Shown here: in pieces, positions 8,820 to 12,663 of the stretch | Numbering within the stretch: position 1 is the first letter of the stretch | Layout: each line of letters opens with the position of its first letter | Origin: an uncultured Alphaproteobacteria bacterium | Lineage (GTDB): Bacteria; Pseudomonadota; Alphaproteobacteria; JAPYRI01 | DNA length: 64,000 bases | Reading direction: 5' to 3' | Assembly: GCA_964405515.1 (NCBI GenBank) | Contig: CAYOOG010000001.1 | Span: forward strand, 1,003 to 65,002 | The notes under the pieces: model-generated | Seen by the model: the letters and a program-made list of their open reading frames with translations, nothing else | Database searches by the model: none | What the model was told of the DNA's origin: nothing | Program-made: the position numbers and the translations under genes

Positions 8820-9194
8820 TTCGGCGCCGACGTTACCCTGCGCCTGCCACCCGAGCGGGTGCCGGGCGGCGAAGGCAGCAGCCAATATCCTCTGTTCTAC
8901 GCTTGAGGCAACCCGTCGAGAGTGCTTTCCGGGCAGATGGAACCAGTTTGATGGGTGCAAATCGATTTCCCAGGTAGGCGCGGCGTGAAGCGCGATATGG
9001 TATATCGGGCAAGCACCGCAACGCCCCTCGGGGACCGATTTGCCCCACCGAAGGCCGGGTTCTTTTGCACCTTGGCGTTGTTGCGTTCCTTATTCGATGT
9101 CCCACATCGTAAGGCGGAGCGCTCCTTGCCAAGGCGCAAAATAATCTCGGTCAAATGATTCTATATGCCCGGAAAACACTCTAGGGTGTGGCCC

Positions 9195-10715
9195 ATGGTC
9201 GCGCACGTAAATACCGTTGCCTTTCTGGGCATCGAGGCCCGCGCCGTCGATGTGCAGGTGCAGATGACCTCGGGGCTACCCGCCTTTGCCGTGGTCGGCC
9301 TGGCCGACAAGGCGGTGGCGGAATCCCGCGAGCGCGTGCGCGCGGCGCTTTCCTCCATCGGCCTCGCCCTGCCGCCCAAACGCATTACCGTGAACCTTGC
9401 GCCCGCCGACCTGCCCAAGGAAGGCAGCCATTACGACTTGCCCATCGCCTTGGGGCTCTTGGTGGCCATGGGTGTTCTGCCGCCGGACGAGGTCGAACAC
9501 TTCACCGTGCTCGGCGAACTTTCCCTCGACGGCAACCTGGCGGCGGTGGCCGGTGTCCTGCCGGCGGCCTTGGAAGCGGCGGCGGCCGGGCGAGGGCTGA
9601 TCTGTCCCGCCGCCACCGGGGGTGAGGCGGCCTGGGCCGGAGAGGTCGAGGTTCTGGCGCCGGGCTCGCTTTTGGCGCTGATCAACCATTTCAAGGGCAC
9701 GCAAGTCTTGACGCCGCCGCAACCGGGTGAGGCCGAGGACGCCGCCAGCGCGCTTGACCTTGCCGACATCAAGGGACAGGAGACCGCCAAACGGGCGCTT
9801 GAGGTGGCCGCCGCCGGGGGCCACAACCTTCTGATGATCGGGCCGCCCGGGGCTGGCAAGTCCATGCTCGCGGCGCGCCTGCCCGGGCTGCTGCCGCCCT
9901 TGTCGCCCGGCGAGGCCCTGGAAGTGAGCATGGTGGCCAGCGTTGCCGGTGAACTGGCGGACGGCAAGCTCACGCGCCGCCGGCCCTTTCGCGAGCCCCA
10001 TCACAACGCCTCCATGGCGGCGCTCGTCGGCGGCGGCCTGAAGGCCAAGCCGGGGGAGGTCTCGCTGGCCCATTTGGGCGTGCTGTTTCTGGATGAGTTC
10101 CCGGAATTTTCGCGGAACGCGCTTGATTCCCTGCGCCAGCCCCTGGAGACCGGCCGGGTTTCGGTGGCCCGCGCCAACGCCCACGTGACCTATCCGGCGC
10201 GGGTGCAGTTGGTGGCCGCCATGAACCCCTGCCGTTGCGGTTATCTGGCGGACGCGGCCCGGGCCTGCAACCGGGTGCCCAAGTGCGCCATTGAATATCA
10301 GTCGAAAATCTCCGGCCCGCTCTTTGATCGCATCGACCTGCACATGGAGGTGCCGGAAGTACGCGCCCAGGATCTGACCTTGCCGCCGCCGGCGGAAAAC
10401 TCCGCCGCCGTGGCGGCGCGGGTGGCTTCGGCCAGATCGGTGCAATTGGAGCGCTACGAGCGCTTGGCGCCGGGCGCCGGCGTGCGCACCAATACCGACG
10501 CCGACGGCGAATTGCTGGAAGAAGTGGCGCGGCCCGATGAAGCGGGCGCCTCGACGCTCGCCGAAGCGGCGGAGCACATGCGGCTATCGGCGCGCGGCTA
10601 CCACCGGGTGTTGCGCGTGGCGCGCACGCTCGCCGATCTCGACGGCGGCGAGGGCGTCAAGCGGCTGCACATCGCCGAGGCGCTGTCCTATCGGCGCATT
10701 GCCTTGCCGAGGTAA
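9195..10715 (+). CDS. comM: YifB/ComM family Mg-chelatase-like AAA+ ATPase
   Basis: MVAHVNTVAFLGIEARAVDVQVQMTSGLPAFAVVGLADKAVAESRERV... is a Lon-like N-domain. It has a Walker A (LLMIGPPGAGKSM) and a C-terminal Mg-chelatase ChlI-like domain. Confidence 0.85.
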   Translation: MVAHVNTVAFLGIEARAVDVQVQMTSGLPAFAVVGLADKAVAESRERVRAALSSIGLALPPKRITVNLAPADLPKEGSHYDLPIALGLLVAMGVLPPDEVEHFTVLGELSLDGNLAAVAGVLPAALEAAAAGRGLICPAATGGEAAWAGEVEVLAPGSLLALINHFKGTQVLTPPQPGEAEDAASALDLADIKGQETAKRALEVAAAGGHNLLMIGPPGAGKSMLAARLPGLLPPLSPGEALEVSMVASVAGELADGKLTRRRPFREPHHNASMAALVGGGLKAKPGEVSLAHLGVLFLDEFPEFSRNALDSLRQPLETGRVSVARANAHVTYPARVQLVAAMNPCRCGYLADAARACNRVPKCAIEYQSKISGPLFDRIDLHMEVPEVRAQDLTLPPPAENSAAVAARVASARSVQLERYERLAPGAGVRTNTDADGELLEEVARPDEAGASTLAEAAEHMRLSARGYHRVLRVARTLADLDGGEGVKRLHIAEALSYRRIALPR

Positions 10716-10725
10716 GACAAAGCCT

Positions 10726-11973
10726 TCATTCGCACGCGCCGTCTTCACAGGTGATGTCACTCTTATCCGCGTCCTGTGTGCAGACGCAACCGTCCTCTTC
10801 TTCCTCGCAATCCCAATACGCCGTGCCCTCGCAACATTCGACGGGGGTGCCGTCTTCGTCCGTTACCTCTTCAGTCACGAATTCAGTGAAATCCACGCAG
10901 GAAGATGTTCCACTGCTGGAGCCGCTGCTTCCGGAACTGCTGGATCCCTCTCCGCCGCTTGTTCCGCTGCTCGATCCGTCGGTGCCCACACCCGTGTCGT
11001 CGCCGGAACCTCCTCCATTCACGTCCTCGCAGCGCTGCTTCAGGCTCACCAGGTCATCCGGGGAGTAGGCATTTTCGAATCGGCGCGTGCACCACCCTTC
11101 CATTCCTGTGAATACGGCAAATGCCCCCGCGCCGCCGGCGATGAGCCCGGCCAAAGGATGCTTTAGCGTGTAGGTGCCTACCAGTCCGCCAACAACAAAA
11201 CCGCCGGCGCTCAAACCCACAAGGCACATGTCCACGGCGGTATTGCGCAGAACCGTATCAACCATGTGGTCGCAATCCAGACCGCCGCCAGAGGCGTAAC
11301 CGAACGTGCAGCTCAAGCTTTCGGTACCGTCGCACTCCAGCGAAGCGGTCCCTGTATCCGACCAAGCAAGAATCTTGCGCTGCTCGGTTTGCCAGATGTT
11401 TGCAGATTCTGTCCTGGGGTCCACATCGGGCAATGAAAGGATCGGCATGATAGGACGTTCCAACACAGTCTCCGACCACAAGGAAATACCGTTGCGTTCC
11501 ACCCACTGGTCGATCATGTCGTTGTCGAACTGCCGATCGTCAACGCCGACGTCAACTGAAAGCCGCATGACAATCTCATAACCGGCAAGACGGCTTCTAA
11601 ACGTCGACATTTTCGTCGCACTGGTTTTCAAGTGATAAATGATGACGTTGTATTCGTTGGTGGTGAACAATACTAAATCCGGCGAACCTCCCCGTTTCCG
11701 ATTCCCCAGGGTGTGCTCGATTTCATAGCCCTCCGGCAATGCCGGGCCAAACTTTGCCTCCAGCCAGGCCGAGCTGCGGCAGGCGCCGTCGAAATAAATC
11801 TTACCGCCCATGCAGGCGCTGCCCGTGAGGCCCATGGGTCCCGTGAGTGCGTCCAGTCTGGTGGGCTGTGCGAGGGCCGGTGAAGCGGCCGAATGGATAA
11901 CGATTGATACGCCAAAAAGAAAAATAGCGGCGAGCGACACAAGCCCCGTTCCGCCGGATTGTTTTACCGTCAT
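10726..11973 (-). CDS. Orphan hypothetical secreted protein: Sec signal, roughly 250 aa domain of unknown fold, glycine-zipper segment, Gly/Ser linker, acidic Cys-rich C-terminus
   Basis: 415 aa ORF. It has a signal peptide with an AXA site (…HSAASPALA|QP) and a GxxxG zipper (VGLSAGGFVVGGLVGTYT…AGLIAGGAGAFAV). A G/S-rich run follows (NGGGSGDDTGVGTDGSSSGTSGGEGSSSSGSSGSSSGTSS), and the last 57 aa carry 9 Cys among many D/E. Local GC is about 45-52% against 65-70% in the flanks. I recognise no family. Confidence 0.6.
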   Translation of the reverse strand: MTVKQSGGTGLVSLAAIFLFGVSIVIHSAASPALAQPTRLDALTGPMGLTGSACMGGKIYFDGACRSSAWLEAKFGPALPEGYEIEHTLGNRKRGGSPDLVLFTTNEYNVIIYHLKTSATKMSTFRSRLAGYEIVMRLSVDVGVDDRQFDNDMIDQWVERNGISLWSETVLERPIMPILSLPDVDPRTESANIWQTEQRKILAWSDTGTASLECDGTESLSCTFGYASGGGLDCDHMVDTVLRNTAVDMCLVGLSAGGFVVGGLVGTYTLKHPLAGLIAGGAGAFAVFTGMEGWCTRRFENAYSPDDLVSLKQRCEDVNGGGSGDDTGVGTDGSSSGTSGGEGSSSSGSSGSSSGTSSCVDFTEFVTEEVTDEDGTPVECCEGTAYWDCEEEEDGCVCTQDADKSDITCEDGACE

Positions 11974-12096
11974 GACAACTACCCCTAAAATAGCGCCATC
12001 TCGCTGCGCGAAATGGAATTGTCAACCAACCAGGGGGCCGCGTCAACGTTGCGCAGCCTGGCAAGAGTTCAGCCCCCGGCAGGGAAAGTCACCCTG

Positions 12097-12663
12097 CTAC
12101 TTTTTCTTCTTTTTCTTTTTGTCGAGCTTGGTGATTTTCTGGCCTTCGAAGGTCAGATTGTACATCAGGCCCTTGTTGGAAAAGATGAAGCCGATGATCG
12201 GTTCCTTGAGCGTTTCGGTGTCGATCTCGCCGCCGGCGCCCATGTCGGCGACGGCGACGCTGCCGTCGATGCCGGCTTCCCAGCCGTCGCTTTCCTGGAA
12301 GTCCTCAAGGGCATAGTCCTCCATGAACAATATGACCTCGGATTTTTTCTGGGCGCCGATCTGAAAACCGATGGAAGCGCCGGCGATGCTGTAATAGGCC
12401 ACGGTTTTCCCATCAACAATAAGCGCGCCTTCGCCGTATTCGCCGCCGATGCCTAGCCCGGCCTTGAGAACCTTGGGAAACACCAGATAGCCCTCGGCCT
12501 CGCCCGCCAGTTCCTTGCCCTCTGGGGATTCTTCGCTGAAGCGTTCGAGCGCCGCCTTGACGCGGGCGTCAATCTCGCGGGCCGATGCCGCCTCGGCCGC
12601 GCGTTCCGAAAATACAAGGGCCAGGCCCAAGATAACGGCGGCGGCGATGATGCGTCTGGTCAT
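12097..12663 (-). CDS. SYLF (Ysc84/DUF500) lipid-binding domain protein with a C-terminal poly-lysine tail
   Basis: It has a signal peptide (MTRRIIAAAVILGLALVFS). The sequence YLVFPKVLKAGLGIGGEYGEGALIVDGKTVAYYSIAGASIGFQIGAQKKSEVILFM follows the SYLF/DUF500 pattern. It ends ...KLDKKKKKK before a TAG stop. Confidence 0.8.
   Translation of the reverse strand: MTRRIIAAAVILGLALVFSERAAEAASAREIDARVKAALERFSEESPEGKELAGEAEGYLVFPKVLKAGLGIGGEYGEGALIVDGKTVAYYSIAGASIGFQIGAQKKSEVILFMEDYALEDFQESDGWEAGIDGSVAVADMGAGGEIDTETLKEPIIGFIFSNKGLMYNLTFEGQKITKLDKKKKKKK
12100..12120. repeat. Poly-pyrimidine (CTT/TTT)n tract; on the coding strand it is (AAG/AAA)n and encodes the poly-K tail
   Basis: The plus strand reads c-tttttcttctttttcttttt immediately 5' of the stop codon complement cta (12097-12099). 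Confidence 0.8.

Follow-up and report, generated by a model that had tools for sequence, protein, structure and literature searches.

A very rare family of cysteine-rich, probably exported proteins with a member encoded beside comM in an uncultured alphaproteobacterium

A stretch of 64,000 nucleotides (nt) from an uncultured Alphaproteobacteria bacterium (GenBank assembly GCA_964405515.1, contig CAYOOG010000001.1) was used for the analysis and is called the window here; positions given without another contig name are those of the window. The gene under study, hereafter the target gene, occupies 10726-11973 of the minus strand; its product is a protein of 415 amino acids (aa), and its stop codon is at 10726-10728. 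The list of open reading frames (ORFs) confirmed this ORF as proposed in the initial annotation. Its neighbour comM (9165-10715, plus strand), in which all three Mg-chelatase/ComM Pfam domains are present, runs towards it, and the coordinates bear out the proposal that the target gene ends convergently 10 nt from the comM stop codon (gap at 10716-10725). A SYLF/BPSL1445-family gene (12097-12663, minus strand) lies on the other side, and the target ORF takes up the entire 1.25-kb space separating it from comM. The codon-position pattern of the ORF is coding-like, with the content of guanine plus cytosine (GC) highest at third codon positions (GC3), followed by first (GC1) and second (GC2) positions. 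The identical target sequence was present on contigs of three independent metagenome assemblies; when population variation was looked at for the ratio of nonsynonymous to synonymous substitution rates (dN/dS), the available copies were identical except for a run of N. The target is a real gene.

The target protein is built of successive modules, all encoded on the minus strand. Positions 11869-11973 encode a predicted signal peptide (aa 1-35) with an n-region containing K4, an h-region LVSLAAIFLFGVSIVI and a c-region SPALA followed by Q. The Kyte-Doolittle peak of this leader is 2.27, and with a crude Hessa sum of -0.38 kcal/mol it is the sole clearly membrane-competent segment of the protein. 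By inspection of the sequence, the boundary between SPALA and Q follows the -3/-1 alanine rule, and the hydrophobic leader ending in ALA that had been described earlier was thus found again. The leader is followed by the N-terminal domain (aa 36-233; 11275-11868), which was delimited by four-member alignment and pairwise BLASTP and defines the family described below. Within it, a segment at aa 75-133 (11575-11751; FGPALPEGYEI...PDLVLF...VIIYHL...LAGYEIV) weakly resembles one FG-GAP repeat unit. Hydropathy and GxxxG motifs mark a glycine- and alanine-rich hydrophobic helical hairpin at aa 247-291 (11101-11235). It consists of two glycine-rich hydrophobic segments (aa 247-267 and 273-291) joined by a short K-H-P turn, and corresponds to the double GxxxG segment of the initial annotation; it may serve as a membrane hairpin or as an oligomerisation element.

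Analysis of the C-terminal part of the protein revealed three further modules. A post-hairpin helical segment (aa 292-320; 11014-11100) contains C295 and C315, with helices modelled at residues 294-302 and 305-319. A low-complexity linker rich in glycine, serine and aspartic acid (aa 321-358; 10900-11013) is encoded by imperfect AGC/GGA-rich repeats, and its predicted local distance difference test (pLDDT) score is below 50. The linker itself agrees with the earlier description, but the quasi-tandem repeat said to encode it was found as only two exact CTGCTGGANCC units and one approximate unit; Tandem Repeats Finder (TRF) reported only a weak 12-nt repeat of 2.3 copies in the linker DNA. The protein ends in an acidic cysteine-rich module of 57 aa (aa 359-415; 10729-10899) with an ECC-x-GT motif. 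Its 21 aspartic and glutamic acid residues match the earlier count of more than 20, but eight cysteines were counted instead of nine. Two loops of the form D-x-D-x-[ST]-x3-C, DEDGTPVEC and DADKSDITCE, are present in this tail; the sequence had been seen before this pattern was defined.

Homologues of the target protein are extremely rare. Word-indexed searches of 5.8 billion clusters, made with the full protein and with a linker-free version, returned only the target itself. An exhaustive phmmer search of 1.84 billion protein representatives identified P0004 (375 aa; E 2e-7, aligned over target residues 29-398), P0005 (272 aa; E 5e-7) and P0006, a fragment of 111 aa that closely resembles the P0004 N-terminus. 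P0010 (280 aa) came from a profile search, and a metagenome scan found a longer contig bearing P0005. Pairwise BLASTP comparison of N-terminal domains gave E-values of 8e-20 and 7e-17, and the homologues are 24-33% identical to the target. Residues invariant in the four-way alignment are C54, F61-x-G-x-C-R66, W70, F75, A-G-Y-E at 130-133, W166, W194 and C-D-G-T at 214-217. The initial annotation had called the protein an orphan, a term that does not strictly apply given three distinct distant homologues, one of them with the identical full architecture. Its proposed check of phyletic distribution gave a patchy result, with three distinct relatives among the 1.84 billion representatives.

Of the modules, only the N-terminal domain of about 200 aa is common to the four members (target, P0004, P0005 and P0010). 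The module order of P0004 is the same as that of the target, namely leader, N-terminal domain, glycine-rich two-segment hairpin, linker and cysteine-rich tail. The ECC-x-GT tail motif is common to both proteins, and a 'C-T' after the hairpin is aligned between them. The hairpin similarity score of this pair was reached by 14 of 2000 composition-matched shuffles (p ~0.007) and the tail similarity score by 72 of 2000 (p ~0.036). The hairpin of P0004 carries a TGGG turn, and its leader is lipobox-like (...ATVGC). P0005 and P0010 are short forms in which a non-hydrophobic, cysteine-containing end segment stands in place of the hairpin and which have neither linker nor tail. The three metagenomic hypothetical proteins resemble the target in a homologous N-terminal domain, a leader and an even cysteine count, and differ from it in their unrelated genomic contexts.

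A hydrophobic N-terminal leader is present in all four members, and the cysteine counts of the mature parts, taken without the leader cysteines, are 16, 20, 10 and 10, all even. Cysteine residues flank the target hairpin on both sides. This arrangement, together with the cysteine-containing segment that replaces the hairpin in the short forms, favours an extracytoplasmic location of both hairpin ends; it fits an extracytoplasmic disulfide-bonded protein whose two hairpin ends are periplasmic. Leader features and module layout likewise support the earlier view of the target as a modular protein predicted to be exported. Overall, our analysis suggests that the target protein is exported and probably disulfide-bonded and membrane-associated.

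The genomic contexts of the relatives were compared. The contigs of P0010 (L086, 9987-10895) and P0005 (L087, 7903-8814) are 79% identical at the nucleotide level over 922 bp. The shared block extends from about 45 nt upstream of the gene, where there is a perfect TATAAT, to about 35 nt beyond it; no other sequence is shared by the two contigs within 8-10 kb on either side. The limitation of the shared block to the gene suggests indirectly that the family can occur as a unit of one gene and that it moves in this form. Both neighbourhoods look accessory. Upstream of P0010 (L086, 6795-9516) are genes for an M4 (thermolysin-like) peptidase, an Amidase_2 protein (peptidoglycan amidase) and small unknown proteins; different unannotated ORFs of 345, 274 and 889 aa are found beside P0005 (L087). 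The P0004 gene, with 67% GC in a contig of 68% GC, lies beside an unrelated gene. It has 19 nt in common with a convergent gene at the latter's 3' end (L084, 1275-1293), which mirrors the tight convergent packing of the target. The family is extremely sparse, patchy and tied to no neighbourhood.

Searches of the whole protein, its separate modules and its homologues against Pfam, NCBIfam, PHROGs and PADLOC gave nothing significant, and the earlier statement that the protein falls in no known family was borne out, as no curated family matched. Single-sequence and profile searches of Protein Data Bank (PDB) sequences also gave nothing significant, the best being low-complexity matches (E 0.017 and 1.9). 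No match was found in plasmids and phages by tblastn or in viral contigs by scan. Literature searches on glycine zippers with cysteine-rich periplasmic proteins and on XAC2610 and FG-GAP returned nothing relevant.

The families of nearest general likeness were considered individually. SlyB/Pcp-type families are exported envelope proteins with a glycine-rich hairpin, and the glycine-zipper two-transmembrane (2TM) and SlyB-Pcp proteins (PF13488, PF05433) share with the target a glycine-rich GxxxG helical hairpin and, by prediction, export; the SlyB-Pcp proteins are small, whereas the target adds a large N-terminal domain and a cysteine-rich tail. No Pfam glycine-zipper family (PF13488, PF05433, Gly-zipper_YMGG, Gly-zipper_Omp) matched the whole protein at max_evalue 1, and none matched the isolated hairpins of the target and P0004 at max_evalue 10, a setting at which the HMMER filters still discard most matches above about E 0.1. 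A SlyB/Pcp-type lipoprotein was rejected: there is no lipobox, and the first cysteine of the target is residue 54, well past the leader.

For FG-GAP proteins the likeness is confined to part of the N-terminal domain. Three FG-GAP_3 repeat proteins matched target residues 67-133 in phmmer with E-values of 4e-4 to 9e-4 that are inflated by their multiple repeats, and hhalign gave the family profile a probability of 41% over 41 columns against twelve FG-GAP repeats. Residues 75-133 resemble one FG-GAP/VCBS unit (PF13517) in the succession of FGP-x-LP-x-GY, a PD-hydrophobic strand, a second strand and a-GY-E; where the FG-GAP/VCBS unit has the calcium-binding loop D-x-N-x-D-G, the target has GNRKRGGSPD. 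This gives no more than a hint that part of the N-terminal domain resembles one propeller blade. A complete FG-GAP/VCBS beta-propeller (PF13517, PF01839) was rejected, as only one blade-like stretch is present, a propeller needs several, and Pfam gave no match. The Excalibur motif is DxDxDGxxCE, and the two tail loops of the target resemble Excalibur (PF05901) loops in an acidic, cysteine-containing module that is probably exported. The Excalibur calcium-binding domain was likewise rejected, since the tail has no Pfam match at max_evalue 10 and the loops are absent from the P0004 tail.

AlphaFold2 reached a mean pLDDT of 43.4 with the single sequence and of 44.2 with the four-sequence alignment. 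Only the helical hairpin reached about 66-75 in the single-sequence model, and parts of residues 51-145 and 371-410 reached about 51-75 in the alignment-based model. Fold searches with models of pLDDT ~44 carry no weight.

The base composition of the target gene was compared with that of the window. The initial annotation had reported 45-52% GC inside 10726-11973; the gene as a whole has 57.8% GC, compared with a mean of 61.9% for the window, which places it at the 7th percentile among same-size segments. Just 25% of its 60-nt lines have a GC content of 52% or less, and only one of its 200-nt windows is under 50%; a local dip to 47-53% is present at aa 101-200. Of two example lines quoted earlier, that at 11581 has the 27/60 reported, but that at 9601 has 46/60 and not 43/60. 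The comparison of GC3 and codon usage proposed at the time placed the gene in the low tail without clear deviation: its GC3 of 0.66 is the 6th lowest of 54 genes (z -1.4) and its leave-one-out codon-usage score the 5th lowest of 54 (z -1.6). Dinucleotide signatures as deviant as that of the target, or more so, occur in 12% of same-size segments. The right-hand neighbours are near the target in GC, with 58.6% in the SYLF gene and 57.3% in nadA. The apparent GC cliff at the 3' end of comM arises because comM itself is the GC maximum among the genes of the window (69.3%, GC3 0.84); its codon-usage score is also among the highest of the 54. The GC contrast of the target is mild and mostly an effect of comM, and its composition lies in the low tail but is no outlier.

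A total of 80 comM loci (L004-L083) from species-representative genomes formed the comparison set for the junction. None of them encodes a ComM more than 75% identical to that of the window, and the top matches are all from alphaproteobacterial metagenome-assembled genomes (labels Rhodospirillales, Kiloniellaceae, Sphingomonadales and similar); the set thus includes no close sequenced relative of the host. Downstream of comM, the 80 loci have neither the target nor the SYLF gene nor nadC. Among 63 alphaproteobacterial loci, the gene adjoining the comM 3' end, on either strand, belongs to 53 different clusters; therefore, synteny generally breaks off at the 3' end of comM in this group. On the other side, gshB is kept upstream of comM in 39 of 83 loci searched, including three copies of the window's own contig. 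The genes in the 20 kb surrounding the target are housekeeping genes, and no integrase or transposase was found near it; neither a tRNA nor any other Rfam match was found within the window, and no meaningful direct or inverted repeats flank the target. The earlier proposal that a low-GC islet points to horizontal acquisition is not supported in that form, given that the gene is no compositional outlier and has no integrase, tRNA or flanking repeats.

Taken together, we consider the target, with a probability of about 0.5, to be a lineage-restricted accessory gene whose product, from a very rare uncharacterised family, is an envelope protein exported through Sec and containing disulfide bonds. 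The gene, its family and the module order retained in P0004 are direct observations; we infer export, disulfides, topology and any ligand. The 35-aa leader would steer export, with cleavage after ALA. The N-terminal domain (~200 aa) would fold outside the cytoplasm, held by the conserved cysteine pairs 54/65, 214/222 and 234/250. The hairpin (aa 247-291) would associate with the membrane with both of its ends in the periplasm, and its GxxxG packing may drive self-association. The flexible glycine/serine linker would present a small, disulfide-knotted and strongly acidic module, and this acidic cysteine-rich tail may bind divalent cations. Our best guess is a binding or structural role in the cell envelope for a protein tethered to the membrane. 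Toxin, adhesin and metal-binding roles, put forward in the initial annotation, are likewise guesses.

Several results weigh against this interpretation. The crude Hessa sums of the two glycine-rich segments, +2.5 and +4.3 kcal/mol, indicate marginal insertion by the translocon, and the segments may not span the membrane but form a membrane-associating or oligomerising hairpin. An Arg-Arg pair follows the second hydrophobic segment; under the positive-inside rule such a pair favours a cytoplasmic C-terminus, here weakly. The acidic character of the tail is not kept in P0004, whose tail is non-acidic. No conserved neighbouring gene was found across the family contexts to give a functional clue, and no fold from the AlphaFold2 models backs any function.

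Four other explanations of the protein were weighed, and all are less likely than an exported envelope protein. A membrane-active toxin or bacteriocin, in which the zipper hairpin of a single-gene cassette forms pores or depolarises target membranes, is improbable. The GxxxG-rich hydrophobic hairpin, the very patchy distribution and the two family members that have only the gene in common between unrelated flanks would suit it, and glycine-zipper toxins are known, for example EsxX, which PMC12744356 describes as such. However, the short members have no hydrophobic hairpin, so that the hairpin is not the conserved core; the window shows neither an adjacent small immunity-like gene nor genes of a secretion system nor a delivery domain; and PADLOC, PHROGs and Pfam gave no toxin match, nor was a plasmid or phage copy found. 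Quite improbable, too, is a protein that matches SlyB/Pcp in function: attached to the outer membrane, it would oligomerise through its hairpin in the inner leaflet, as might happen under envelope stress. Glycine-rich segments of such marginal hydrophobicity could pass through Sec and insert elsewhere later, the P0004 leader is lipobox-like, and the SYLF-family neighbour encodes another envelope protein. But the leader of the target itself has no cysteine, so it is no lipoprotein; it carries large extra domains foreign to SlyB-type proteins; and the Pfam glycine-zipper searches described above were negative even at max_evalue 10, within the limit set by the HMMER filters (most matches above about 0.1 are dropped). 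It is highly improbable that the glycine-rich region crosses the inner membrane an odd number of times, with the N-terminus outside and a cytoplasmic tail that binds zinc or iron, for example in a sensor or transducer. The Arg-Arg pair directly after the second segment, the weakness of that segment (+4.3 kcal/mol) and a tail with 8 cysteines and 21 acidic residues speak for this topology. Against it, the cysteines on both sides of the hairpin and the even counts suit an oxidising compartment, P0004 has a clear two-segment hairpin with its TGGG turn, and the searches revealed no domain known from cytoplasmic signalling or metal binding. A spurious ORF or a decaying gene without function, as the low codon adaptation and the poor structure predictions might indicate, is extremely unlikely, since the ORF fills the 1.25-kb space with a coding-like GC3 pattern, the homologues in other organisms keep cysteines and motifs at 24-33% identity, and promoter-like and Shine-Dalgarno-like elements are present.

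Two further explanations concern the origin and mobility of the gene. That it is a recently acquired low-GC genomic islet, inserted beside comM by horizontal transfer, is rather unlikely in our judgement. The codon score (5th lowest of 54) and GC3 (6th lowest), both in the low tail, the dip at aa 101-200, the patchy family distribution, the behaviour of the family as a single-gene cassette elsewhere and the synteny breakpoint on the comM 3' side would all agree with acquisition. On the other hand, neither GC (7th percentile) nor dinucleotide deviation (equalled by 12% of segments) makes the target an outlier, its GC equals that of the adjacent SYLF and nadA genes, integrase, tRNA and flanking repeats were not found, and the best ComM relatives, at 75% identity or less, are too distant to display an empty site. 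A broader and decidedly unlikely proposal is that of an undescribed family of mobile single-gene cassettes encoding secreted disulfide-rich proteins, whose long forms would insert into membranes through the zipper hairpin. Their role could be competitive (pore-forming toxin) or protective (envelope remodelling), with a new fold in the N-terminal domain that may have arisen from an FG-GAP blade. If the envelope-protein interpretation is true, the target is one more lineage-restricted accessory envelope protein, and its main use would be as a starting point for describing a new and very rare family, which counts four distinct members in about 15 billion predicted proteins and has a modular glycine-zipper and cysteine-knot C-terminus. 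It has no bearing on any long-standing question and to the specialist would be a rare but unremarkable hypothetical protein. The analysis further shows that the low-GC island beside comM is less sharp than it had seemed.

The upstream intergenic region of the target gene (11974-12096, minus strand) contains a promoter-like site and a Shine-Dalgarno-like element. Promoter scan found two sites in this region against 0.4 expected, and the site TTGACG-17-GACAAT has its TTGACG at 12046-12041 and its GACAAT at 12023-12018 (minus strand). A TTGACA hexamer at 12025-12020 (minus strand) overlaps the -10-like GACAAT hexamer; its presence had been noted before, but it lies 46-52 nt upstream of the ATG and not about 30 nt. 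The AGGGG Shine-Dalgarno-like element (11986-11982, minus strand) ends 8 nt before the ATG. Folding of the region 11974-12096 was no better than that of shuffles. A promoter of the extracytoplasmic function (ECF)/EcfG type, GAAC-N18-CGTT at 12070-12045 (minus strand), was rejected: the motif occurs at chance level in the window (7 against 6.8 expected), and the spacer exceeds the usual 16-17 nt. Downstream, no terminator-like site was found in the 10-nt convergent gap (10716-10725), and a bidirectional terminator there was rejected, as local folding was no better than shuffles (z -0.3 to -0.6).

The SYLF/BPSL1445-family neighbour encodes a protein of 188 aa (NCBIfam 211 bits; Pfam Ysc84), which is another exported protein and counts in favour of the envelope-protein interpretation of the target. 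Its leader has no lipobox cysteine despite the family's name as a lipoprotein. The C-terminus of this protein carries a run of lysines (...LDKKKKKKK), encoded at an A-rich tract at 12097-12123.

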